Shown here one piece after another: positions 5,398 to 49,995 of a stretch of DNA of 64,000 nt. The notes under the pieces are model-generated. The model was not told where the DNA came from and ran no database searches. It saw nothing but the letters and a program-made list of their open reading frames with translations. The stretch comes from Actinomycetota bacterium. Its GTDB lineage: Bacteria > Actinomycetota > Thermoleophilia > Solirubrobacterales > Thermoleophilaceae. The DNA lies in NCBI GenBank assembly GCA_046735115.1, contig JBKPSR010000012.1, forward strand, positions 3,317 to 67,316, read 5' to 3'. How positions within the stretch are numbered: the first letter of the stretch is position 1; the number at the start of each line of letters is the position of its first letter. The position numbers and the translations under genes were made by a program.

Positions 5398-6171
5398 CTA
5401 CGGCTTCAGCGGCGCGCCCATCGCGTGAAAGCCGCCGTCCACGTGCACGATCTCGCCGGTCACTCCCCGGGCGAGGTCCGACAGGAGGAAGAGGACGGCA
5501 TCGGCAACCGGGGCGGGGTCCGAGGTGTCCCAGCCGAGCGGCGCCTGCTTGCCCCACAGCCCGGCGAGCGTCTCGAAGCCGGGAATGCCCTGAGCTGCCG
5601 GCGTCTCCACCGGGCCCGCCGAGATCAGGTTCACGCGCACCTTCTGCTCGCCGAGGTCGCGCGCCAGGTAGCGGGAGACCGACTCGAGCGCCGCCTTGGC
5701 CACGCCCATCCAGTCGTAGACCGGCCACGCCACGCCCGCGTCGAAGTCCATCCCGACGAGGCTGCCGCCGTCGTCCATCAGCGGGGCGAGCGCCTCCGCG
5801 AGCGCCTTGAACGAGTAGGCGCTCGTGCGGAAGGCGACCTCAGCGGACTCGGGCGGCGCCGTCATGAAGTTCCCGCCGAGCGCGTCGCCGGGCGCGAAGG
5901 CGATCGCGTGGAGCGCACCGTCGACGCCGCCCCAGCGCGAGCGCAGGTCGTCCGTGAGCGCCTCGAAGTCGGCCGGGTTGTTCACGTCGAGCTCGAGCAC
6001 GTCCGGCGGGTTTGGCAGGCGCGAGGCGGCACGCTCGGTCATCCGCCGAGTGCGTCCGAAGCCGGTGAGCACGATCTGGGCACCCTCCTGCTGCGCGCGC
6101 TCCGCGACCGTGTAGGCAATGCTGCCCTTCGTCAGCACCCCGGTGATGAGCAGGCGCTTGTCGGCGAGCAT
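5398..6171 (-). CDS. fabI: Enoyl-ACP reductase (NADH), InhA/FabI type
   Basis: Starts MLADKRLLITGV... SDR fold with ..YDWMGVAKAALES.. (Y/K pair) and ..NLISAGPVET... The ATG at 6171 shares 1 nt with the TGA of the upstream maoC-like gene. The track ORF (to 6210) has a 13-aa Arg/Ala extension. Confidence 0.85.
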   Translation of the reverse strand: MLADKRLLITGVLTKGSIAYTVAERAQQEGAQIVLTGFGRTRRMTERAASRLPNPPDVLELDVNNPADFEALTDDLRSRWGGVDGALHAIAFAPGDALGGNFMTAPPESAEVAFRTSAYSFKALAEALAPLMDDGGSLVGMDFDAGVAWPVYDWMGVAKAALESVSRYLARDLGEQKVRVNLISAGPVETPAAQGIPGFETLAGLWGKQAPLGWDTSDPAPVADAVLFLLSDLARGVTGEIVHVDGGFHAMGAPLKP

Positions 6172-40079: not shown

Positions 40080-41102
40080 CTACACAGTTTCGATTAACCG
40101 CTGTTTGAGCGCTTCTTCGCAGAACGCGGCCTCTATGGCGGTGCGCGTGATTTCGCGCAGTTCGTCGTCGCCGAAGCCGAAGTGCTCGCGGCAGATCTGG
40201 TACTCGCCGCCGATCGAGGCGCCGAAGTAGGGCGGATCGTCCGACCCCAGCGTGACCCTGACGCCGGCGGCCGCGAGCCTGGGGAGCGGGTGCTCGCCGT
40301 AGGTCGGGTAGATGCCGAGCACGACGTTGCTCGTTGGGCAGCATTCGAGGTAGATGCCGCGCTCGGCGAGCTCCTCCACGAGCTCGGGGTCCTCGATCGA
40401 GCGAACCCCGTGGCCGATGCGGCTCACCGGCAGCTCGAGGCCGCCGCGCACGCTCTCGGGGCCGGCCCACTCGCCCGCGTGAACGGTGCAGCCGAGGCCG
40501 GCGTCCGCGGCGATCCGGAAGGCGTCGGCGTAGGCGGCGGGCGGATAGTTCTCCTCGTCGCCGGCCATCGAGAACCCGACGATGTAGGGATGCGTGCGCT
40601 CTGCGGCGTAGCGTGAGACGCGCAGGGCGGGCTCGACGCCGAAGTTGCGCACGCACGAGATCAGGATGCGGCCCTCGATCCCCGCGTCGCGGCGTGCGTC
40701 GTCGATGCCGCGCGCGATGCCGTCGATGTGCTCGTCGTCGGTGAGCCCGACGAGCCGGGCGTGGTCGGGCGAGGCGGTTAGCTCGACGTAGATGGTCCCC
40801 TCGCCCGCGCATCGCATCAGGTACTCGTAGGTGATGTCGCGGTAGTCCTCCGCGGTGCGGATGACGCTCGCCGCCTTGTCGTAGGTGTCGAGGAAATCGA
40901 GGAAGTCGCGGTACGCGAAGCGGTCGGGCGCGGCGAGGAGGCCCCCGGGCAGCTCGAGCCCGTTGCGCTCCGCGATGCGCCGGATGAGGTCGGGCGGAGC
41001 GGAGCCCTCGAGGTGCACGTGGAGCTCGACCTTGGGGACCCCGCCGTCGGTCGAGCTAACCGCATGACCTCGAGCACGGCCGGCTTCCCCCAGCCCCCTC
41101 AC
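40080..41102 (-). CDS. add: Adenosine deaminase
   Basis: ..PKVELHVHLEGS.., ..CTVHAGEW.., ..TLGSDDPPYFG... ATGA overlap with the deoA stop. Confidence 0.9.
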   Translation of the reverse strand: MRGLGEAGRARGHAVSSTDGGVPKVELHVHLEGSAPPDLIRRIAERNGLELPGGLLAAPDRFAYRDFLDFLDTYDKAASVIRTAEDYRDITYEYLMRCAGEGTIYVELTASPDHARLVGLTDDEHIDGIARGIDDARRDAGIEGRILISCVRNFGVEPALRVSRYAAERTHPYIVGFSMAGDEENYPPAAYADAFRIAADAGLGCTVHAGEWAGPESVRGGLELPVSRIGHGVRSIEDPELVEELAERGIYLECCPTSNVVLGIYPTYGEHPLPRLAAAGVRVTLGSDDPPYFGASIGGEYQICREHFGFGDDELREITRTAIEAAFCEEALKQRLIETV

Positions 41103-42421
41103 CTCATCACCTCGAGCACCGGCGGCGGTGAGTCCGCGGCGGCGTCGCCGAGCCGGTAGGCGTCGCGCAGTGCGGCCACCGCGCGGAGCGCCGACTCAAC
41201 ATCCCGCGCATGAACCTGAGCGAGCGGGCGAGCCCCGGGCGCGACCTCCTCGCCCGGCGCCGCTATCTCGGTCAGCCCCACCGAGTGATCGACGCGGTCC
41301 GTCTCCTTTGTCCGGCCTCCACCGAGCGCGACCACCGCGAGGCCCACCGCGCGGACGTCGACGCTTGACACCGTGCCGCCCTCCTCCGGCTCGGCCGCCA
41401 CGGTGACGGGAGCCACGCGCAGATGGCGACCGGGCGCCTCCAGGAGGTCGGCTGGGCCACCGAGCTCCGTGACCATCGCCGCGAAGCGCTCGGCCGCGGC
41501 GCCGCCGTCGAGGGCCTGCTCGGCGGCCTGGCGGGCGGCGGCCGCGTCCGGCTGGAGGCCGCCGAGCACGAGCAGCTCGGCGCTGAGGGCGAGGGTGATC
41601 TCGCGGAGGCGCTCGTCGCTCGCGGCGCCGGTCAGGTGCTCGACCGACTCGTGCACCTCGACGGCGTTGCCGGCCGTCCGACCGAGCACGCGGTCCATGT
41701 CGGTGAGGATCGCCGTGGTGCGGAGCCCGTTGCCGGTGGCCACCTCGACTATCCCGCGCGCGAGCTCCTCGGTCTCCTCGCGGTTCGTGAAGAACGCTCC
41801 CGAGCCGACCTTGACGTCCATGACGAGCGCGTCGAGCCCCGCGGCGAGCTTCTTCGAGAGGATCGACGCGACGATCAGCGGGATGGACTCGACCGTCCCG
41901 GTGGCGTCGCGGATCGCGTAGAGGCGGCGGTCCGCCGGCGCGAGGCGGCCCGTCTGGCCGACGATGGCGGCGCCCGCGCTCGCCACGGCCTGGCGAAACC
42001 TGTGCGGGTCCGGCGTGGTTTCGTAGCCGGGGATCGACTCGAGCTTGTCGAGCGTCCCGCCGGTATGGCCGAGGCCGCGGCCCGAGATCATCGGGACGGC
42101 TCCCCCGCACGCCGCCACGATCGGGGGGAGCAGCAGGCTCACCTTGTCCCCGACCCCGCCCGTCGAGTGCTTGTCGAGGACGGGTCCCGACAGGCCCGCG
42201 TTCGACCAGTCGAGGACGTCGCCGGAGTCCCGCATGGCTCCGGTGAGCGCGATCCGCTCGGCAGGCGTCATCCCGTTGAGCACTATCGCCATGGCGAGGG
42301 CACCAACCTGTGCATCGCTGACCGTGCCGTCCGCGATGCCGTCGACGAGCTCGCGGATCTGCTCGTCCTCGAGCGCGCCGCCGTCGCGCTTGATGCGGAT
42401 GAGGTCCGGCACGTAGGTCAC
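41099..42421 (-). CDS. deoA: Thymidine/pyrimidine-nucleoside phosphorylase
   Basis: GTG at 42421 (VTYVPDLIRIKRDGG..). ..LDKHSTGGVGDKVSL.., ..MISGRGLGHTGGTLDKL... Confidence 0.9.
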   Translation of the reverse strand: MTYVPDLIRIKRDGGALEDEQIRELVDGIADGTVSDAQVGALAMAIVLNGMTPAERIALTGAMRDSGDVLDWSNAGLSGPVLDKHSTGGVGDKVSLLLPPIVAACGGAVPMISGRGLGHTGGTLDKLESIPGYETTPDPHRFRQAVASAGAAIVGQTGRLAPADRRLYAIRDATGTVESIPLIVASILSKKLAAGLDALVMDVKVGSGAFFTNREETEELARGIVEVATGNGLRTTAILTDMDRVLGRTAGNAVEVHESVEHLTGAASDERLREITLALSAELLVLGGLQPDAAAARQAAEQALDGGAAAERFAAMVTELGGPADLLEAPGRHLRVAPVTVAAEPEEGGTVSSVDVRAVGLAVVALGGGRTKETDRVDHSVGLTEIAAPGEEVAPGARPLAQVHARDVESALRAVAALRDAYRLGDAAADSPPPVLEVMR

Positions 42422-42485: not shown

Positions 42486-43325
42486 TCACTCGGCGAGGTC
42501 CTCGACGAACCGAACCAGCAGCGGCGCCAGCGCGTCCGCGGCGCGGTGTGCGTCCCGGAGCGTCTGCTCGTGGCTGAGCGGCTCGTCGCCCATCCCCTCG
42601 GCGAGGTTCGTGATGGCGGAGACCGCCGCCACGCGCAGTCCTGCGTGACGCGCGACCGCGGTTTCGTGAACGGTCGACATCCCGACCGCGTCGGCGCCGA
42701 GCTTCGCGAAGGCGCGGATCTCGGCAGGCGTCTCGAAGGCCGGGCCGGCAACGCCCAGGTACACGCCCTCGGCCAAATCGGTGCCGAGCTCGGCGGCCGC
42801 GGCGCGCAGCCGCTCGCGCAGCTCGGGGTCGTAGGCGTCGAGGAGGCTCGGGAAGCGGGGACCGATCTCGTCGTCGTTCGGCCCGGCCAGGACGTTGACG
42901 CCGCTCATGTTGATGTGATCGGTGATCAGCATGAGCTGCCCCGAGCCGACCTCAGGGCGGAGCGACCCGGCCGCGTTGGTCAGCACGAGGATCTCGGCGT
43001 CGGCGGAGCGCAGGGCGCGGATCGGAGTGCGGATGGCGTCGAGGTCGGCGCCCTCATACACGTGCGCGCGACCCTGGAGCACGGCGACCGGCACGTCCCC
43101 GATGCGGCCCAGCACAGCCCGGCCGCCGTGCCCGGCGACGGTCGGTCGCGGGAAGCCGGGCAGGTCGGCGTAGTCGATCACGGTCGCGTCCTTCACGGCG
43201 TCCGCCACGGCGCCGAGCCCAGAGCCCAGCACGATCCCGACGCGCGGGCGGAGACCCGAGCGCTCGGTCATCACGGACGCGGCCTCCCGGTGCGCGCCCC
43301 GCACGGCAGCCGGATCGGCGCTCAT
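42486..43325 (-). CDS. punA: Purine nucleoside phosphorylase (trimeric PunA type)
   Basis: ATG at 43325 overlaps the cdd TGA. ..GIVLGSGLG.., ..VAGHGGRAVLG.., ..LTNAAGSL.., ..GMSTVHET... Confidence 0.9.
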   Translation of the reverse strand: MSADPAAVRGAHREAASVMTERSGLRPRVGIVLGSGLGAVADAVKDATVIDYADLPGFPRPTVAGHGGRAVLGRIGDVPVAVLQGRAHVYEGADLDAIRTPIRALRSADAEILVLTNAAGSLRPEVGSGQLMLITDHINMSGVNVLAGPNDDEIGPRFPSLLDAYDPELRERLRAAAAELGTDLAEGVYLGVAGPAFETPAEIRAFAKLGADAVGMSTVHETAVARHAGLRVAAVSAITNLAEGMGDEPLSHEQTLRDAHRAADALAPLLVRFVEDLAE

Positions 43326-44452
43326 CCGGGCGGCTCGAACTCGAACGCGAGCGGAAGCAGCTCGCCAACCGTCGTGGTGCGACGCGGCCCGCCGGGCCTG
43401 CCGAGATGCACCGGCGTGTCGGGCTTCGCGAACTCCGCAAGCCGCTGCCGGCAGCCGCCGCATGGGGGGCACATCTCCGCGCGCTCCGCGACGACCGCGA
43501 CCTCGGTGATCTCCGTCTGCCCGGCCGCGACCAGAACCCCGATCGCGGACGTCTCCGCACACTGTCCCTGTGGGTAGGCGGCGTTCTCGACGTTCGAGCC
43601 CGCGTAGACCCGCCCGTCGGCGCCGCGAACAGCCGCCCCGACGGGGAAGTGCGAGTAGGGAACATGCGCGGTCCGCATGACGGCGTCGGCGGCGCGAAGC
43701 AGCTCCTCGGCCGAGTCGGCGTCGGCGGCGCGAAGCAGCTCCTCGGCCGGGTCGGCGTCGGCGGCCCCCGCGATACGGTCCCCCGACCCTTCCGCGCCGG
43801 CGCCCACCCCAGCGGCTTCCCCACCGAGGGCGCGCGCACCGGCTGCGCCGGCTGCTTCGGTAGCGCTGCCATTCCGCGTGGCTTCCGCGCCGCCAGTGCC
43901 CGCCGCACCGACCCCCGTCTCAGCCGGCGTGCTCACGTACCGGACGAGGTCCGCGTAGCTCGTCGCGACCAGGTCGGCCTCCTCTATCCCGAGCTCGTGT
44001 CGGAGCCGCTCGACCTTCTCGCGCTCCTCGGTCAGGTCGGACTCCGAATCGGCGAGCGCCTCGATCTCGAGATAGCTCCCCAGGCCGTCGACCTCGTCGA
44101 GATGGATCCGCACCCCCTCCCACAGCAGCACCCTTCGCCGCTTCGTAACGGTCACGTCTGCTCCATACGCGGAGTCGAGCGCCTCGCGTAACGGTGCGGC
44201 ATCCGCGACGGGCACGCGGCGGTATGTGCTCGTGCGGGCCTCGGTGGAGTCGGCTCGCGAGTACTCGATGAGCTCGTCGAACAGAGGCGGCCCGTCGGTC
44301 TCCTGCTCGCGCAGCTTGAGCCGGTCGCGGGCGCCGGCGAAATAGGTGTCGCGCTGCCTGATCTCGCCGATGTCCTCGGCGCCGATCGCGAGCGCGCGGT
44401 CGAGCGTGCGGGCCGGGTCAGGGTCGCGCGCCTTCAGCTCGATGTTGCGCAT
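43322..44452 (-). CDS. cdd: CYTH (CyaB/triphosphate-tunnel)-domain - cytidine deaminase fusion protein
   Basis: One uninterrupted frame. N-domain MRNIELKAR.., ..IRQRDTYF.., ..LKLRE.., ..KRRRVLLWEGVRIHLDEVDGLGSYLEIEA.. is CYTH. A ~75-aa Gly/Ala linker follows. C-domain ..HVPYSHFPVGAAV.., ..GQCAETSAI.., ..MCPPCGGCRQ.. carries the Cdd zinc motifs. Confidence 0.8.
   Translation of the reverse strand: MRNIELKARDPDPARTLDRALAIGAEDIGEIRQRDTYFAGARDRLKLREQETDGPPLFDELIEYSRADSTEARTSTYRRVPVADAAPLREALDSAYGADVTVTKRRRVLLWEGVRIHLDEVDGLGSYLEIEALADSESDLTEEREKVERLRHELGIEEADLVATSYADLVRYVSTPAETGVGAAGTGGAEATRNGSATEAAGAAGARALGGEAAGVGAGAEGSGDRIAGAADADPAEELLRAADADSAEELLRAADAVMRTAHVPYSHFPVGAAVRGADGRVYAGSNVENAAYPQGQCAETSAIGVLVAAGQTEITEVAVVAERAEMCPPCGGCRQRLAEFAKPDTPVHLGRPGGPRRTTTVGELLPLAFEFEPPG
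43682..43765. repeat. 36-bp in-frame tandem duplication (2.3 copies) inside the CYTH-cdd gene
   Basis: 43682-43717 and 43718-43753 differ at 1 nt, and 12 more nt repeat at 43754-43765. It encodes D(P/S)AEELLRAADA x2 immediately before the Cdd core. Confidence 0.9.
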
Positions 44453-44491
44453 GGAGACATCCAAGGGCCTCGCGAGGTTATCGTCGCACCC

Positions 44492-45121
44492 ATGCCTCAG
44501 GGTCTTGTGATCGTCGAGCATCCCGTTCTCGCCGACCGGCTGACCGTCATGCGCGACCGCTCCACAGGTCACGGCGAGTTCCGCCAGGCGCTGTTCGAGG
44601 CCTCGGCGATCCTCGCCGTCGAGGCAGCCCGCGACCTGCCCGTGACCGAGGTGAGCATCGACACCCCGCTCGAGCCGACCACCGGCAGCCGTCTCCCCAC
44701 CGAGATCACGATCGTGCCCGTGCTACGAGCCGGGCTCGGCATGGTCGACGGCTTCCTGCGACTACTGCCCGGCGCGCGCGTGGGCCACGTGGGCGTCTAC
44801 CGGGACGAGGAGGAGCACCGGCCGGTCGACTACTACGAGCGCCTACCGCCGAAGCTCGCGGAGGCGCACGTGTTCGTGGTCGACCCGATGCTCGCCACCG
44901 GCGGGAGCGCGGTACACGCCGCCGACAAGCTCAAGGCGGCGGGCGCCCGCCGCATTTCCCTGGTCTGCCTCGTGGTGGCACCCGAGGGCGTGGAGGCGAT
45001 GGAGAAGGCACATCCCGACGTGCCGATCTGGACCGCCGCGATCGACCGCGAGCTGGACGAGAACGCCTACATACGTCCCGGCCTGGGAGACGCGGGCGAC
45101 CGGGTCTTCGGGACGCAGTAG
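44492..45121 (+). CDS. upp: Uracil phosphoribosyltransferase
   Basis: 209 aa. ..IVPVLRAGLGM.., ..VVDPMLATGGSA.., ..YIRPGLGDAGDR... Confidence 0.95.
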   Translation: MPQGLVIVEHPVLADRLTVMRDRSTGHGEFRQALFEASAILAVEAARDLPVTEVSIDTPLEPTTGSRLPTEITIVPVLRAGLGMVDGFLRLLPGARVGHVGVYRDEEEHRPVDYYERLPPKLAEAHVFVVDPMLATGGSAVHAADKLKAAGARRISLVCLVVAPEGVEAMEKAHPDVPIWTAAIDRELDENAYIRPGLGDAGDRVFGTQ

Positions 45122-45289: not shown

Positions 45290-46552
45290 CTAGCCGCCGC
45301 CGCTCGCAACCGACCGCGCGCTCAGGCCAACCGCCCCCGGCTCACCTTCCGACGCCGCGAAGCGCTCGTCGACCGCCACTCCCGCCACCCACACGATCTC
45401 GCCGTGGGCCTCGATCACCGGCAGCGTCCGGCGCAGGGCGCGCGGGACCTTTCGGTCGGTGAAAAGGTCCTGGAGCGACTTCGAGCCGCCGAGGCCGGCC
45501 GGGCGCATCCGGTCGCCGTCGCGCCATGCGCGGACCGTCACGGCAGCGCCCAGGTCCGTTACGGAGACGTCGCCCGGGGCGTCCAGCCGGGCTTCCACCT
45601 CCCAGTCGCCGAAGCGCGCGCGGCCGGGCACGGCCAACTGAACGGGTGCGGGAGGTTCGGCGCCTGGGCTGCGGGTGAAGCGGAGCGTTCCGTACTCGGA
45701 CACGGCCCGAAGCCCGTCGCCCAGGTCGAGTGCCTTGGTGCCCCGCTCATCCAGGTCCAAGACGGATTCCGGGACCGGACGATTGCCTGCGAGCCGCCGC
45801 AGGACCAGTCGCTGCAGGGCGGGCGGGTACTCGAGCAGTGCGTCGATTGCGATCGCGGGGCCACCGCCGAGCTCCTTCAACGCCTCGTTGACCGCGGCGT
45901 CCAACACCTCGGCCTCGTCGCGCAGCTGGCGTGCCGTCTCGGCGATCGTCTGGTCGACCACCGGGGACAGCTCGCGCAGCGCGTCCAGCACGTCGTGGCG
46001 CACGCGTGCGCGCGCGAAGCGCCGGTCGGCGTTCGAGGGGTCCTCGCGCCATTCCAGCCCGCGGCCGCGCAGGTAGTCGCGCACCTCTTCGCGCGTCACG
46101 GCGAGCAGCGGTCGCACCAGACGCCCGCGCCGCGGCGCCATCCCGTGGAGCGCCCGCGAGCCGGGCGAGACGGCCAGCCGATAGAGGACCGTCTCGGCCT
46201 GGTCCGAGGCGGTGTGGGCGGCGGCGTAGTCGCCCTCCGCCAGCTCCTCGGCGAGCGCGTAGCGGGCAGTCCGCGCACGATCCTGCAGATTGCCCTCGCT
46301 GCCGAGCCCGACGGACTCGACCGAGAGCGGGATGTTGCGCCCGCTGCAGAGCTGCTCGACGAGCGCCTGGTCGAGCGCGGAATCCTCGCGGAGACCGTAG
46401 TTGACATGGAGCGCCGTGAGCGAGCCGCCGAGACGATCGGCGATGTCCAGGAGCGCCACCGAGTCGCCGCCGCCCGACACCATCACGAGCAGCGGCGCGC
46501 CCGGCCGGATCAGCCCGCTCTCGCGTGCGGCCTCCAGGGCGCGCTCGCTCAT
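45290..46552 (-). CDS. tilS: tRNA(Ile)-lysidine synthase
   Basis: ATG at 46552 overlaps the TGA of the MerR-cyclase gene. PP-loop ..LLVMVSGGGDSVALL.., ..AHTASDQAETVL.. and a C-terminal ..GGSKSLQDLFTD.. domain. Confidence 0.88.
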   Translation of the reverse strand: MSERALEAARESGLIRPGAPLLVMVSGGGDSVALLDIADRLGGSLTALHVNYGLREDSALDQALVEQLCSGRNIPLSVESVGLGSEGNLQDRARTARYALAEELAEGDYAAAHTASDQAETVLYRLAVSPGSRALHGMAPRRGRLVRPLLAVTREEVRDYLRGRGLEWREDPSNADRRFARARVRHDVLDALRELSPVVDQTIAETARQLRDEAEVLDAAVNEALKELGGGPAIAIDALLEYPPALQRLVLRRLAGNRPVPESVLDLDERGTKALDLGDGLRAVSEYGTLRFTRSPGAEPPAPVQLAVPGRARFGDWEVEARLDAPGDVSVTDLGAAVTVRAWRDGDRMRPAGLGGSKSLQDLFTDRKVPRALRRTLPVIEAHGEIVWVAGVAVDERFAASEGEPGAVGLSARSVASGGG

Positions 46553-47742
46553 TCGTCCCGCCGCACGGCCCGGCACAGCTGACGCGGCTGGTCGAAGCCC
46601 TTCAGCTTCACCTGGCCGATCGGCTCGAAGCTCAGGTGCGGCGAGCCCGACACGGCATCCACCACCGAGTCGGTCACGAGCACCTCGCCGCCGCGGGCGC
46701 GGGCGACCACCCGCGACGTGAGGTTCACGTCCCGCCCGAAGTAGTCGCCGTCGCGGTAGAGCGTCGTCCCGAGGTGCACGCCGATGCGCGGCTCCGGGCG
46801 CTCCTCGAACAGCGACGTGAAGCCCACCGCCCAGTCCACAAGCGCGCCGACATCCTGGCCTACCACCATCACCTCGTCGCCGATCGTCTTCACGACGCGC
46901 GCGTCCCCGGGCAGCGTGTTGGTGACCCCTTCGACGAAGCGCTCGACCGACGACAGTGCCTCCTCCTCGCCCTCCTCCTCGGTGAAGCGCGTATAGCCGG
47001 CGAGGTCCGCGAAGGCGATCGCCACGCGGATGCGTCCCAGGTCCACGTCCTCGTCCTCGAGCTCCGACTCCATGTGGCCCACCACGTCCTGCTCGACGAA
47101 GTGCCGGAGGAAGCGCTGGTGGACGTAGTCCATCATCGGCGACGCGAGCGGAAGCAGGTCGCGCGCAAGGTCCTCCATCTCCTCCGCCATCTGAAGCCCC
47201 GGGACGCCCTCGCGGATCAACGGCTCGTGCACGTAGAGGTGGAAGACCCGCACCTCGGCGTCCGCGATCTGGGACAGCGCCTGCCCGTAGACCCGGCACA
47301 GCTGGAGGAAGGCGACGAGCGGGAAGCCCGCCCCGAGGACGGCCGCCACGTACTGGAGCGCCTGGACGTCCTCGTCGGTGAGCTCGTCGAGCTCCGCCGC
47401 GGGAAGCCCGAGGCTCGTCCAGAAGCGCTCGATGAGCGCGGCCTCGAGCCCGGTCAGGTCGCTCGCCTCGTCGAGCGAGTGCCTCGCCTCGTCGGCGCCG
47501 AACATGTCCTCGATGTAGCCGTAGGCGAGCCGTCCCCGCTCGCCGGCCTGCTTGATCTGCTCGAGCTTGTGCCCGCGCTCGCGAAGCCGGGCCACGATCC
47601 GTGCATGCGCCACCGCCGCGGTGGTCCACTCGCCGGTGCCGTCCACCTCCGGGACCACGCCCTCGCGCGCCCAGCGGCGCAGGGTTCCCGGCGAGACGCC
47701 TACCCGCTCGGCGGCGTCCTTCAATGAGAAAGTCTCAGCCAC
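46549..47742 (-). CDS. MerR-type HTH - helical linker - class III adenylate/guanylate cyclase fusion
   Basis: GTG at 47742 (VAETFSLKDAAERVGVSPGTLRRWAREGVVP = MerR HTH). C-terminal cyclase motifs ..VAIAFADLAGYTRF.., ..VKTIGDEVMVVG.., ..IGVHLG.., ..YFGRDVNLTSRV... Confidence 0.8.
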   Translation of the reverse strand: MAETFSLKDAAERVGVSPGTLRRWAREGVVPEVDGTGEWTTAAVAHARIVARLRERGHKLEQIKQAGERGRLAYGYIEDMFGADEARHSLDEASDLTGLEAALIERFWTSLGLPAAELDELTDEDVQALQYVAAVLGAGFPLVAFLQLCRVYGQALSQIADAEVRVFHLYVHEPLIREGVPGLQMAEEMEDLARDLLPLASPMMDYVHQRFLRHFVEQDVVGHMESELEDEDVDLGRIRVAIAFADLAGYTRFTEEEGEEEALSSVERFVEGVTNTLPGDARVVKTIGDEVMVVGQDVGALVDWAVGFTSLFEERPEPRIGVHLGTTLYRDGDYFGRDVNLTSRVVARARGGEVLVTDSVVDAVSGSPHLSFEPIGQVKLKGFDQPRQLCRAVRRDE

Positions 47743-47773
47743 GGCAACACCACGTTTTACCGTTCGTGCGCAA

Positions 47774-47794
47774 GCACCGGGCGGTGCCCGGTGC
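47774..47794. promoter_or_regulatory. Perfect 21-bp palindrome GCACCGGG-CGGTG-CCCGGTGC (candidate MerR-type operator)
   Basis: Read directly. 8-bp arms, 32-52 bp upstream of the MerR-cyclase GTG, in the 243-bp divergent region shared with the acyl-CoA reductase gene. Confidence 0.35.
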
Positions 47795-47818
47795 ACAGCG
47801 ATGGCATTCCGAAAGCAA

Positions 47819-47846: not shown

Positions 47847-47985
47847 CTGCGTGCGGGCACACGGCCCGCCTCGTAGGCCGGCGACGGCACGCGCCAACCG
47901 GTCTCTACAAACTTGGTGCGAAGTGTTGCGCGCCCGGGGCCGCGCGTCAACATAAACTCCGCAGGCACACGTCTTGGGAGGATCT

Positions 47986-49995
47986 TTGAGCTATTTCGTC
48001 ACCGGCGCGACCGGCTTCATCGGCAGGCACCTCGTGGCCGAGCTGTTGAAGCGCGAGGGCACCATCTACGCGCTGGTGAGAGAGGGCTCGAGGGGCAAGC
48101 TCGACGCGCTGGCGCAGCGGCTGGACGCGCCCGAGGGTCGCATTCAGCCGGTGACGGGCGACCTCTCCAAGCCCGGGCTGGGAATCGAGGGCTTCGACGA
48201 GAAGATCGACCAGCTCTTCCACCTCGCGGCCGTGTACGACGTGGAGGCCGACGAGGAGGCGTCGGAGCGGGCGAACGTCGAGGGCACGAAGCACGTCATC
48301 GAGTTCGCCGACTCGCACGACGTGGGGCGCTTCCACCACGTCAGCTCGATCGCCGTGGCGGGCAGCTACAAGGGCGTGTTCCAGGAGGACATGTTCGACG
48401 AGGGGCAGAAGCTGCCCCACCACTACCACCGGACGAAGTACGAGGCCGAGCGGCTCGTACGGGAGGGCGTCGAAGCGAAGACGCTGATCTACCGGCCGGG
48501 CCTCGTCGTGGGCCACTCGGAGACCGGCGAGATGGACAAGATCGACGGTCCCTACTACTTCTTCAAGCTGCTCCAGAGGCTTCGCCACGCGCTTCCCGAG
48601 TGGTTCCCGCTGGCCGGCCCGGAGGGCGGCCAGACGAACTTCGTCCCGGTGGACTTCGTCGCGCGCGCGATGGACCACATCGGCCACCTGCCGGACGACG
48701 ACCTGCCCGGGGACACTTTCCACCTGGTCAACCCGGAGCCGATGACCGTCGGCCAGGGGCTCAACGAGTTCGCCAAGGCCGCGCACGCGCCGCAGTTCGC
48801 CATGCGGATCGACCAGAACATGACGAACGTGGTCCCGAAGCAGGTGCGCGCTGGGATCAAGGCGCTGCCGACCGTCAGGCGGATCAGGCACCAGCTCTTC
48901 CACGACCTGGGCGTCCCGCCGGAGGCGATGGAGAACCGGGACTTCCGCTGCACGTTCGACGCGCGCGACGCGCAGCGCGCCCTCAGCGGCACCGGCATAG
49001 CGGTGCCGCCGCTCTCGACCTACGCGCCCCGCCTGTGGGACTACTGGGAGCGGAACCTCGACCCGGACCTGTTCCGCGAGCGCTCGCTGACGAGCTCCAT
49101 CAAGGGCAAGAAGGTGCTGATCACGGGCGCCTCGAGCGGCATCGGCTGGGAGACGGCGCTGAAGGTCGGCGAGGCCGGCGGGGAGGTGATCCTGGTCTCA
49201 CGCACGCGCGAGAAGCTGGAGGAGCTCGCGTCGCAGATCGAGGAGACCGGCGGAAGCGCGCACGTCCACCCGGCCGATTTGTCGGACATGGACGACATCG
49301 ACCGGCTCGCCGCGGAGGTGCTCGAGGCGCACGGCGGCGTGGACGTGCTCGTGAACAACGCCGGGCGCTCGATCCGCCGCTCGGTGGAGCGGTCCTACGA
49401 TCGCTTCCACGACTTCGAGAGAACGATGCAGCTGAACTACTTCGGCGCGCTCAAGCTGATCCTCGCCTTCCTGCCGGGGATGCGCAAGCGCAAGTCCGGC
49501 CATATCGTCAACGTGAGCTCGATCGGCGTGCAGACGAACACGCCGCGCTTCTCGGCCTACGTCGCCTCGAAGTCGGCGCTCGACGCCTTCTCGCGCTGCA
49601 CCGCGCCCGAGGTGGTCCAGGACAACGTCAAGTTCACGACCGTCTACATGCCGCTCGTGCGCACGCCGATGATCGAGCCGACCGACATCTACAAGGCCTT
49701 CCCGACGCTCACGCCGGACGAGGCCGCGCAGATGCTCTGCGACGCCATGATCGACAAGCCGAAGCGGATGGCCTCGCGGCTCGGGACCTTCGGCGAGGTG
49801 CTCTACGCGATCTCGCCGAAGACCGTCGACATCGTCCTCAACACCGCGTACAACCTCTTCCCCGACTCGTCAGCCGCCAAGAGGAAGAAGGACGGCGACC
49901 GGAAGCCGGCGCCGGCCGACGAGAAGAAGCAGGACGGCGAGATGTCGACGGAGGCGGTCGCCATGGCGTACCTGCTCCGGGGCGTGCACTTCTAA
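47986..49995 (+). CDS. Two-domain fatty acyl-CoA reductase-like protein (NAD-binding reductase domain + SDR domain)
   Basis: TTG at 47986 sits 4 nt after GGGAGGA. N-domain ..YFVTGATGFIGRHL.., ..YHRTKYEAERL... C-domain ..VLITGASSGIGWETA.., ..YVASKSALDAF... The architecture resembles mycobacterial AcrA1 and Marinobacter long FAR enzymes. Confidence 0.8.
   Translation: MSYFVTGATGFIGRHLVAELLKREGTIYALVREGSRGKLDALAQRLDAPEGRIQPVTGDLSKPGLGIEGFDEKIDQLFHLAAVYDVEADEEASERANVEGTKHVIEFADSHDVGRFHHVSSIAVAGSYKGVFQEDMFDEGQKLPHHYHRTKYEAERLVREGVEAKTLIYRPGLVVGHSETGEMDKIDGPYYFFKLLQRLRHALPEWFPLAGPEGGQTNFVPVDFVARAMDHIGHLPDDDLPGDTFHLVNPEPMTVGQGLNEFAKAAHAPQFAMRIDQNMTNVVPKQVRAGIKALPTVRRIRHQLFHDLGVPPEAMENRDFRCTFDARDAQRALSGTGIAVPPLSTYAPRLWDYWERNLDPDLFRERSLTSSIKGKKVLITGASSGIGWETALKVGEAGGEVILVSRTREKLEELASQIEETGGSAHVHPADLSDMDDIDRLAAEVLEAHGGVDVLVNNAGRSIRRSVERSYDRFHDFERTMQLNYFGALKLILAFLPGMRKRKSGHIVNVSSIGVQTNTPRFSAYVASKSALDAFSRCTAPEVVQDNVKFTTVYMPLVRTPMIEPTDIYKAFPTLTPDEAAQMLCDAMIDKPKRMASRLGTFGEVLYAISPKTVDIVLNTAYNLFPDSSAAKRKKDGDRKPAPADEKKQDGEMSTEAVAMAYLLRGVHF

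Follow-up and report, generated by a model that had tools for sequence, protein, structure and literature searches.

The fusion gene and its locus

The window analysed here, 64,000 nucleotides from the genome of a soil actinobacterium of the class Thermoleophilia (phylum Actinomycetota; GenBank assembly GCA_046735115.1, contig JBKPSR010000012.1, positions 3,317 to 67,316), contains a nucleoside salvage operon whose first gene seems to combine a CYTH domain with a cytidine deaminase (Cdd). The locus raises the question of whether these two halves form one genuine protein and, if so, what a CYTH domain would do on a deaminase. A previous reading made from the DNA letters alone (the sequence-only reading) had proposed a CyaB-type cyclase or triphosphate tunnel metalloenzyme (TTM) that could feed the deaminase or report pyrimidine status. 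The features of the locus are listed in Table 1.

Table 1. Coordinates of the fusion gene, its domains and motifs, and the neighbouring genes in the window
Feature	Position	Strand	Evidence or remark
CYTH-linker-Cdd gene	43322..44452	(-)	376 sense codons + TGA; ATG start at 44452
CYTH / triphosphate tunnel metalloenzyme (TTM) domain, aa 1-172	43937..44452	(-)	Pfam PF01928, AF2, Foldseek
N3-I-E5-L-K7, NxExK variant of the ExExK hallmark	44432..44446	(-)	DNA read; N3 aligned to E10 of YpAC-IV
K46-L-R48, basic pair on strand β3, equivalent of xRxR	44309..44317	(-)	Alignment
E129-I-E131, ExE metal-binding motif, strand β8	44060..44068	(-)	DNA read; alignment to 3N0Y (E-I-A there)
Gly/Ala-rich disordered linker, aa 173-245 (~73 aa)	43718..43936	(-)	AF2 pLDDT; spacer comparison
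36-bp tandem repeat, 2.4 copies	43681..43765	(-)	TRF
Homotetrameric-type zinc cytidine deaminase domain, aa 246-376	43325..43717	(-)	TIGR01354, NF004064, alignment, Foldseek
CAE zinc motif of Cdd	43553-43561	(-)	DNA read
PCGGC zinc motif of Cdd	43451-43465	(-)	DNA read
punA, purine nucleoside phosphorylase	42486..43325	(-)	Pfam PNP_UDP_1, E 3e-54
deoA, pyrimidine/thymidine nucleoside phosphorylase	41099..42421	(-)	Pfam Glycos_trans_3N, Glycos_transf_3, PYNP_C; start codon approximate
add, adenosine deaminase	40080..41102	(-)	Pfam A_deaminase, E 9e-86
upp, uracil phosphoribosyltransferase, divergent from fusion gene	44492..45121	(+)	Pfam UPRTase, E 2e-72
Divergent intergenic region, 39 bp, with conserved motif GCGACGATAACCTCGCG	44453..44491	.	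Comparison across loci

In the window sequence, the fusion gene is a single open reading frame, unbroken to its TGA. With both domains matched in it, the description of one 376-codon frame in three parts (CYTH, linker and Cdd) holds. The sequence-only reading had placed the CYTH domain at the N-terminus and proposed a Pfam search of the architecture; this search returned PF01928 over aa 1-166 (E 2e-15, 57.5 bits, cut-off 23.2, profile positions 1-179). The start of the protein, MRN(V/I)ELK, is kept in orthologues. A longer frame beginning at GTG 44572 was rejected as a gene-caller artefact that crosses the start of upp on the opposite strand and looks conserved because upp and the intergenic motif are.

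The gene is the first of a salvage and catabolism operon, cdd-punA-deoA-add, with upp transcribed divergently. Reading the DNA confirmed the two junctions previously described: the upp ATG at 44492 leaves a gap of 39 bp to the fusion gene, and the cdd stop and punA start overlap as ATGA (43322-43325). Further downstream, add overlaps the deoA stop by 4 bp. Mycobacterial Cdd lies in a cdd-deoA-add cluster, and the presence of deoA and add in the operon here agrees with that arrangement. The gap between upp and the fusion gene contains TANNNT hexamers resembling -10 elements in both directions and is a putative promoter region. An Rfam scan of the window gave no hit that reached a gathering threshold, and the locus is therefore not explained by a riboswitch.

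Conservation of the fusion across genomes

Among the 79 species-level Thermoleophilia genomes in which both halves were found, 77 carry them in frame, and the upp|CYTH-cdd-punA synteny is kept in almost all 80 loci. The survey of databases suggested by the sequence-only reading extended the two-domain architecture to more than 330 protein clusters among the matches listed. A frameshift or stop hidden between the halves, the weakness which that reading had itself named, was found neither in the unbroken frame of the window nor in these 77 genomes.

It is exceedingly improbable that a sequencing frameshift joined two genes, or that Cdd alone is made from an internal start. Such an account could point to the two loci at which the halves are out of frame (L032 and L049) and to in-frame Val and Met codons within the linker and helix α1. 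However, the neighbouring genes of both these assemblies are also broken by frameshifts, whereas the 77 independent genomes and the database clusters, from many samples, hold one frame. Linker length ranges from 0 to ~100 aa, yet the changes always come in multiples of three. Separate initiation signals have no room in the forms with zero linker, and M259 is a structural residue conserved in helix α1 and shared with the Bacillus anthracis cytidine deaminase (CDA). Across Thermoleophilia, the two halves form a genuine, conserved, in-frame fusion and no artefact.

Nei-Gojobori dN/dS was 0.41 for the CYTH half versus 0.34 for Cdd, values used only relative to each other, because the synonymous sites show partial saturation and compositional bias. 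A neighbour-joining tree built from the CYTH domains did not resolve a single fusion origin, as fusion clades interleave with fragments and true stand-alones at ~50% identity; only the invariant synteny suggests a single origin. The apparent closest stand-alone CYTH query (P0123) is a contig-end fragment of a 307-aa fusion, and several other short stand-alone representatives are probably fragments as well.

The linker between the halves had been described as a ~75-aa Gly/Ala-rich segment. This stands for the window protein (~73 aa, with AF2 pLDDT below 50 at aa 178-229) but does not extend to the fusion in general: the spacer here measures 95 aa, whereas the mode is 21 and the median 27 among 241 fusions, and the commonest form has no linker. 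The 36-bp repeat duplicates the start of Cdd helix α1 (ADADxAEELLRA) and is polymorphic in copy number, with a 93% identical protein (P0002) lacking exactly one 12-aa unit. Judged from this comparison, the long linker is a lineage-specific insertion and not part of the fusion design. The tolerance of 0 to ~100 extra disordered residues argues for independent domains; where the linker is missing, as in the commonest fusions, the C-terminal plug helix of CYTH runs directly into Cdd helix α1.

The cytidine deaminase half

The C-terminal half was matched by Pfam dCMP_cyt_deam_1 (aa 248-344, E 7e-14), by NCBIfam NF004064 (138 bits, cut-off 74) and by TIGR01354 for the homotetrameric type (132 bits, cut-off 113.65). 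These curated profiles, together with the C-A-E and P-C-x-x-C motifs read in the DNA, bear out the earlier description of a complete Cdd. Along with PYSxFxVGAA, NxEN and LLPxAF, both zinc motifs are invariant in 110 fusions. The half aligns end to end with the CDAs of B. anthracis, Enterococcus faecalis and human, its motifs match 2D30, 8X6U and 1MQ0 residue for residue, and Foldseek placed the confidently modelled monomer on tetrameric CDAs with TM scores of 0.86-0.91. By these matches, it is an ordinary zinc cytidine deaminase of the homotetrameric type with all nucleoside-binding motifs. The C-terminal 131 aa share 41-47% identity and every motif with the enzymes of B. subtilis (1JTK), B. 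anthracis and human. Those known enzymes differ in being single-domain proteins of ~130 aa, and Foldseek found no N-terminal CYTH domain on any CDA in the PDB.

Fold and tunnel residues of the CYTH half

The AF2 model of the CYTH half (pLDDT above 90) forms a β-barrel of eight long strands. Foldseek matched it to PH1012, PH1819, SaTTM and YpAC-IV, with TM scores of 0.72-0.85 to 2DC4, 1YEM, 2EEN, 7NS9 and 3N0Z. What had been called a complete CYTH domain departs from the family in its hallmark motif, which is NxExK and not ExExK: the first Glu is replaced by Asn (N3), while the second Glu (E5) and the Lys (K7) are present. The variant occurs in 128 of the 131 clade members. Cluster 7 of PF01928 also lacks ExExK (PMC8233210), so the missing motif is no bar to membership of the CYTH superfamily.

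The opposed walls of the tunnel are present, comprising basic K46, R48, R66, K104 and R106, acidic D119, E129 and E131, the water-positioning DxY pair D35 and Y37, and Y166. Across 110 fusions, N3, E5, K7, D35, K46, R66, K104, R106, D119, E129, E131 and Y166 are invariant, with Y37 and R48 kept in 90% or more; K46 and R48 are both invariant in the clade alignment. The sequence-only reading had made its case depend on conservation of the tunnel residues in orthologues, and this was observed in the fusions and in stand-alone clade relatives alike. In alignments they coincide with the catalytic positions of solved TTMs and can be placed on the structures of YpAC-IV and the Pyrococcus proteins, with K46 aligned to V61 of YpAC-IV and the first Arg of PH1012. 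The aromatic residue of the W/YxRxR motif of thiamine triphosphatases is absent, its equivalent being R44-L-K46-L-R48. From its alignment, the CYTH half falls in a large clade of uncharacterised bacterial CYTH proteins whose signature is NxExK + DxY + RxKxR + K/R + D + ExE.

The literature searched contained no assay of any member of the NxExK clade. Seven loci of stand-alone members were looked up, and no shared gene neighbourhood emerged as a clue to substrate: the neighbours included P-II/Amt, AHSA1/EamA, MPAB_Lcp_cat, HepT/MNT, ChsH2, and an acyl-CoA carboxylase beside a Clp_N-CYTH fusion. Another two contigs gave no information because of their short length.

Cyclase or triphosphatase

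If the CYTH half were a class IV (CyaB-like) nucleotidyl cyclase, it might signal pyrimidine status through cAMP or cCMP. A weak match to TIGR00318 (cyaB), the automatic annotation of some relatives as "predicted adenylyl cyclase CyaB" and the presence of YpAC-IV among the Foldseek neighbours speak for this. The class IV adenylyl cyclases (Aeromonas CyaB, Yersinia YpAC-IV, 3N0Y, and Vibrio VP1760, 2ACA) share the fold and length of the CYTH half and the equivalents of K14, R63, K111, R113, D126 and E136. However, the TIGR00318 score of 42.1 bits lies below the curated cut-off of 57.95, and none of the three sequence features that determine class IV cyclases (the HF motif, a small residue corresponding to V61 of YpAC-IV, and ExA; Vogt et al. 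2021, PMC8233210) is present.

The HFxxxxExExK N-terminal extension for base stacking is absent from the window protein, which starts M-R-N-I-E-L-K and so has no room for it; relatives have at most a few residues upstream of the motif, none of them HF. The V61 position holds invariant K46 in place of the small neutral residue of the cyclases. On strand β8, ExA is replaced by an invariant or near-invariant ExE, with E131 at position 138, where the cyclases are strictly Ala (E-x-A in YpAC-IV and VP1760). Archaeal and other CYTH proteins that carried the same "cyclase" annotation turned out to be triphosphatases (PMC8233210). The "CyaB-type cyclase" label is thus abandoned and a cyclase is highly improbable; by its residues, the CYTH half looks like a phosphatase or a sensor.

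Possible functions of the fused protein

Our preferred reading, whose chances we consider evenly poised, is a bifunctional protein in which a metal-dependent triphosphate phosphohydrolase, and not a cyclase, is tethered to Cdd. One polypeptide would fold into two independently functional domains. The CYTH half would bind a metal-triphosphate ligand in its tunnel and, sharing the chemistry of its stand-alone relatives, would hydrolyse inorganic triphosphate or an NTP, held in the TTM orientation. The tether to the Cdd tetramer would cause both activities to be made together with the salvage operon, and the CYTH product would not be passed directly to Cdd.

By the SaTTM mechanism and the determinants of PMC8233210, a CYTH half that lacks HF, has a basic residue in place of V61 and carries ExE is of the TTM type. 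The first Glu of ExExK in SaTTM binds the water-activating metal M2 (PMC8233210); since this residue is Asn here, hydrolysis may be slow or absent. Together with Lys in place of Arg at the γ-phosphate contact, the change predicts a specificity or rate unlike that of characterised TTMs.

A sensor, the main alternative, is possible, if doubtful. The CYTH half would bind a triphosphate-bearing metabolite (for example the end products CTP and UTP, or PPPi/polyP) and tune the attached Cdd, which would give feedback control to salvage entering via Cdd and not via the feedback-inhibited uridine-cytidine kinase. The Asn at one M2 ligand fits this, as does the direct run of the plug helix into helix α1 in the commonest fusions; a docked regulatory arrangement of CYTH and Cdd is possible in short-linker forms. 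The AF2 pTM was 0.52-0.61, at which the inter-domain geometry is not interpretable. Weighing against a sensor, the other three of the four acidic metal ligands are invariant, as is D119, the same residues are conserved in single-domain relatives that have no output domain, and the fusion persists in lineages whose disordered linker spans 75-100 residues, a poor fit with rigid allosteric coupling. Moreover, we know of no tetrameric CDA that is allosterically regulated. A precedent is found in Arabidopsis AtTTM1/AtTTM2, whose TTM, joined to a uridine/cytidine-kinase-like domain, has lost catalysis (Glu to Gln) and has been proposed as a regulator of the kinase (PMC9582702); AtTTM1 differs from the window protein in the loss of its catalytic glutamates.

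Feeding of the deaminase, as proposed by the sequence-only reading, would have the CYTH half process (d)CTP or (d)CDP and deliver the product by substrate channelling. That the domain is joined to Cdd in the first gene of a pyrimidine salvage operon does suggest a shared substrate family, some TTMs hydrolyse NTPs, and the base of SaTTM-bound ATP lies beside the C-terminal plug helix, the end joined to Cdd (PMC8233210). The proposal is nevertheless chemically weak and very unlikely. The TTM reactions known so far only remove the γ-phosphate or make cNMP and PPi (PMC8233210), so that their products are NDP, PPi or cNMP and not a nucleoside. Cdd keeps every motif of the standard nucleoside pocket. 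Long, variable, disordered linkers also argue against channelling, and Pfam identified no nucleotidase among the genes cdd-punA-deoA-add.

With regard to the operon as a whole, no step obviously needs a triphosphatase, a point that counts against the phosphohydrolase reading, as does the lack of a common gene neighbourhood among the stand-alone relatives looked up.

Relation to known proteins

No description of a CYTH-Cdd fusion was found in the literature searched, in agreement with the sequence-only reading, and CYTH-Cdd, each of whose parts is known, is new as a domain architecture. By profile and fold, the nearest solved structures are the cluster-3 TTMs SaTTM (7NS8/7NS9), PH1012 (2DC4), PH1819 (2EEN) and Pfu-838710 (1YEM), which share with the CYTH half the DxY and ExE motifs, the paired basic residues and the C-terminal Tyr. 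These proteins, of which SaTTM is a two-metal inorganic triphosphatase (PMC8233210), are single-domain and carry ExExK and RxR in contrast to NxExK and KxR in the fusion clade, with ~19-25% identity. Escherichia coli YgiF (CYTH + CHAD), also a triphosphatase, is a bacterial multidomain protein with an N-terminal CYTH domain as observed here, but its partner is the polyphosphate-binding CHAD and not a nucleoside enzyme, and its CYTH domain belongs to a different cluster.

AtTTM1/AtTTM2 likewise join a CYTH/TTM domain to an enzyme of uridine/cytidine nucleosides, with an altered ExExK and the basic tunnel retained (PMC9582702). They differ in that the partner is an N-terminal kinase, whereas the window protein has a C-terminal deaminase, and they are eukaryotic proteins of independent origin, anchored in the mitochondrial membrane. 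A Pfam search of the window protein found no P-loop uridine-kinase-like domain (PF00485), its sole partner domain being dCMP_cyt_deam, and the resemblance is one of logic only.

CYTH proteins occur in all domains of life and their physiological roles are still largely elusive (PMC8233210). Retained throughout an entire class of abundant soil Actinobacteria, and always first in the nucleoside salvage operon, the fusion offers a "Rosetta stone" link between a large, unstudied CYTH clade and pyrimidine nucleoside metabolism, and it parallels the plant UCK-like-TTM proteins. Should the CYTH half be a sensor of CTP/UTP end-product feedback or of PPPi/polyP status, it would make this the first allosterically controlled tetrameric cytidine deaminase, an outcome we consider rather unlikely. 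Such a sensor would, with plant TTM1/2, represent a second independent recruitment of a TTM to control cytidine/uridine entry into salvage, and would assign a physiological ligand to the NxExK/RxKxR CYTH clade. At 300-376 aa, the fusion protein is an easily expressed target with a built-in Cdd reporter for finding the ligand or substrate of the clade.

The analysis also corrects database labels: the only names given to these proteins are "cytidine deaminase" and "adenylyl cyclase CyaB", and both fall short. Automatic annotation often applies the class IV cyclase family name to such proteins.

Architecture of the fusion gene

The fusion gene is an intact open reading frame of 376 sense codons followed by TGA. 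Pfam matched a full-length CYTH domain (PF01928, residues 1–166, E = 2e-15) and a cytidine/dCMP deaminase zinc-binding domain (residues 248–344, E = 7e-14) in this one chain, bearing out the single CYTH-Cdd frame of the sequence-only reading; both of its zinc motifs (CAE and PCGGC) were confirmed in the DNA. That description was accurate overall, except that the CYTH hallmark is NxExK, not ExExK. The C-terminal half exceeded the curated cut-offs of two NCBIfam cytidine deaminase equivalogs (132 bits against 113.65 for TIGR01354, homotetrameric cytidine deaminase). The product is a single polypeptide with two well-folded domains.

The Cdd half is canonical. It aligned end to end with the tetrameric cytidine deaminases (CDAs) of B. 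anthracis, E. faecalis and human, contains all expected motifs (PYSxFxVGAA, NVENAAY, CAE, PCGxCRQ and ELLPxAF), whose residues are invariant in 110 fusions, and its model superposed on solved CDAs with TM scores of 0.86–0.91. It would be expected to deaminate cytidine and deoxycytidine, there being no reason to expect otherwise.

Features of the fusion gene and its surroundings in the window
Feature	Position	Strand	Assignment or evidence
CYTH-cdd	43322-44452	-	PF01928 + Cdd
NIELK	44432-44446	-	codons read from DNA
EIE	44060-44068	-	codons read from DNA
36-bp tandem repeat	43681-43765		2.4 copies, 97% match
CAE	43553-43561	-	codons read from DNA
PCGGC	43451-43465	-	codons read from DNA
punA			PNP_UDP_1 (Pfam)
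deoA			pyrimidine nucleoside phosphorylase (Pfam)
add			adenosine deaminase (Pfam)
upp			UPRTase (Pfam)
Intergenic region	44453-44491		39 bp
Rejected upstream extension	44453-44572	-	GTG start at 44572, 416 aa
Overlapping ORF	45290-47629	-	779 aa
MerR-cyclase protein	46549-47796	-	415 aa; MerR HTH, PF16701, PF00211
Reductase	47974-49995	+	673 aa; NAD_binding_4, short-chain dehydrogenase

Distribution of the fusion

Three protein searches, with the window protein, a Solirubrobacteraceae homologue fragment and a divergent 271-aa relative as queries, each returned at least ~120 clusters, nearly all carrying PF01928 and PF00383 in one chain of 288–426 aa. The only names given to the listed fusion clusters, which come from JGI, ENA, NCBI and Logan assemblies, are “cytidine deaminase” and “homotetrameric cytidine deaminase”. 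Scanning species-representative genomes with a CYTH-only alignment gave 418 relatives, the best 80 of which were all from Thermoleophilia (Thermoleophilaceae, Solirubrobacterales and Solirubrobacteraceae MAGs, two NCBI orders); the taxonomic placement of the window is based on its CYTH domain being 78–79% identical to Thermoleophilaceae MAGs. Among these best 80, both halves were present at 79 loci and shared one frame without a stop in 77, while at the two out-of-frame loci neighbouring genes were also frameshift-fragmented. A frameshift artefact, a concern raised earlier, was thereby excluded. In almost every one of these loci the order was retained (divergent upp, then CYTH-cdd, punA, usually deoA, and add), likewise in a divergent subgroup of 288-aa fusions. 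The fusion is conserved across Thermoleophilia; a crude tree did not establish a single origin.

Full-text literature searches pairing cytidine deaminase with CYTH or triphosphate tunnel gave only unrelated papers, in agreement with the earlier statement that no described fusion of this kind was known, and no solved structure spanning both domains was found. The protein combines two known domains and is already in public databases under uninformative names. Its value lies in a conserved genomic link between the enigmatic CYTH superfamily and pyrimidine nucleoside salvage, the second after the plant UCK-like-TTM proteins, and it offers a tractable test case.

Interdomain linker

The spacer, measured in 241 fusions between SYxDL, where the CYTH domain ends, and the PYS motif of Cdd, had a mode and minimum of 21 residues and a median of 27, against 95 in the window. 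Since stand-alone CDAs carry ~19 residues ahead of PYS (B. subtilis P20 aligned to window P265), the commonest form is essentially linker-free. The ~75-aa Gly/Ala-rich linker described earlier thus holds for the window (73 aa) but not for the commonest fusions; it is a lineage-specific insertion. Residues 178–229 are disordered in the AlphaFold2 model (pLDDT < 50). The tandem repeat lies inside this coding insertion and is a duplication of the initial turns of Cdd helix alpha1. Its copy number differs among 93–99% identical homologues: it is present in P0001 and shorter by exactly one 12-aa unit in P0002 (93%). Linker lengths vary widely, without exception in multiples of three, which is evidence for selected read-through into Cdd.

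Conservation and putative function of the CYTH half

When 1.84 billion representatives were scanned in full with HMMER, 3174 matched, 1718 of them with E < 1e-10. The nearest true relatives are single-domain proteins of 170–190 aa with 40–55% identity and a common N-terminus, RN(I/V)E(L/I)KAR; NxExK occurs in 128 of 131 clade members. In an alignment of 97 members, fused or stand-alone, E5, K7, D35, K46, R48, E131 and Y166 are invariant, and conservation is at least 90% at N3, R44, Y64, R66, K104, R106, R115, H117, D119 and E129. Most of these tunnel residues are also invariant in the 110 fusions alone (R48, at least 90%), so the earlier doubt about their conservation in orthologues did not materialize. 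Together with similar Nei-Gojobori dN/dS values (CYTH 0.41, Cdd 0.34), this shows that the CYTH half is under the same constraint as its free-standing relatives and is no decaying remnant.

Profile alignment to solved structures placed N3, E5, K7, K46, R48, K104, R106, D119, E129 and E131 on E10, E12, K14, V61, R63, K111, R113, D126, E136 and A138, respectively, of the Yersinia class IV cyclase YpAC-IV. Three features define true class IV cyclases: the extension HFxxxxExExK, a small residue replacing the first Arg of xRxR, and ExA for ExE; TTM or ThTPase function was inferred where HF is absent (Vogt et al. 2021, PMC8233210). None of the three determinants is present in the CYTH half, which begins MRN, has Lys46 instead of a small residue and retains ExE; it also scored 42 bits against the NCBIfam class IV adenylate cyclase model, below the cut-off of 57.95. 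The CyaB-type cyclase label therefore fails, and cyclase activity is unlikely. The ThTPase aromatic residue is likewise absent, with R44 in its place.

The nearest solved structures are cluster-3 proteins from Pyrococcus and Sulfolobus (SaTTM). SaTTM is an inorganic triphosphatase in which the water-activating metal M2 is held by the first Glu of ExExK and the second Glu of ExE (PMC8233210). In the clade, however, this first Glu is Asn and the gamma-phosphate Arg is Lys, so that two catalytic positions differ from those of every characterised TTM; no enzyme in the table of characterised PF01928 enzymes (PMC8233210) has these signatures. Judged from its aligned residues, the CYTH half is a TTM-type tunnel with conserved metal- and phosphate-binding residues.

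With roughly even confidence, we propose that the CYTH half would bind a metal-triphosphate ligand and most likely then hydrolyse it, independently of Cdd on the same chain. Hydrolysis is suggested because D119 and three of the four acidic ligands remain, whereas the inactive TTM domain of AtTTM1 has lost its glutamates (PMC9582702), and because the same residues are conserved in single-domain relatives without an output domain. These points weigh against a sensor role, the main alternative, which is less likely; it would follow AtTTM1/2, where the TTM is proposed to regulate a fused uridine/cytidine-kinase-like domain (PMC9582702), and would suit both the Asn of NxExK and the zero-linker architecture. 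Because long disordered linkers are tolerated, two independent activities would fit better than rigid allostery or channelling; the inter-domain geometry of the AlphaFold2 model is unreliable. The earlier suggestion that the CYTH half dephosphorylates a cytidine nucleotide to feed Cdd is unlikely to hold, as nucleosides are not products of TTM chemistry and no nucleotidase is encoded in the operon.

The neighbourhoods examined for stand-alone relatives gave no informative substrate clue. Other NxExK-clade fusions join CYTH to Clp_N or RNase H (proteins P0211, P0214, P0234 and P0393, with loci L090 and L091, and P0255), and no description of either was found in the literature searched. The Clp_N repeat + CYTH gene is flanked by a spermine-synthase-like gene on one side and by biotin carboxylase genes on the other.

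Operon and neighbouring genes

The DNA confirms the reported 39-bp gap to upp, upstream on the opposite strand, and the ATGA overlap of the fusion-gene stop with the punA start; the fusion gene is placed co-transcriptionally with the salvage genes. In a subset of Thermoleophilaceae genomes (L016-L018, L020, L021, L024, L030, L039) deoA is absent and punA is followed directly by add, with the fusion and divergent upp retained.

Comparison of the intergenic region with loci L001-L047 (upstream of position 6001) revealed a motif, GCGACGATAACCTCGCG, conserved in Thermoleophilaceae loci. In the upp direction it reads TATCGT and ends ~7 nt before the upp ATG, a spacing that suggests a leaderless upp mRNA; in the opposite direction it reads TAACCT, ~25 nt upstream of the CYTH ATG. 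The whole region is as short as 25–28 bp in some genomes. The upstream GTG start was rejected. Its extension (…LRHGRDDNLA.PLDASMRN…), annotated on many database homologues, is antisense to the first upp codons and the intergenic motif, and its apparent conservation is therefore a gene-calling artefact.

The MerR-cyclase protein, with an adenylate cyclase regulatory domain and a class III nucleotidyl cyclase domain, lies 2 kb from the CYTH gene and would be a DNA-binding cyclase; the organism thus has a conventional cyclase. The reductase has two domains, NAD_binding_4 (‘male sterility’, fatty acyl-CoA reductase-like) being fused to a short-chain dehydrogenase. Between 40000 and 48000, very many long overlapping ORFs occur on both strands, one of which spans tilS and beyond; these are by-products of high G+C, and genes appear to be confined to frames with Pfam support.
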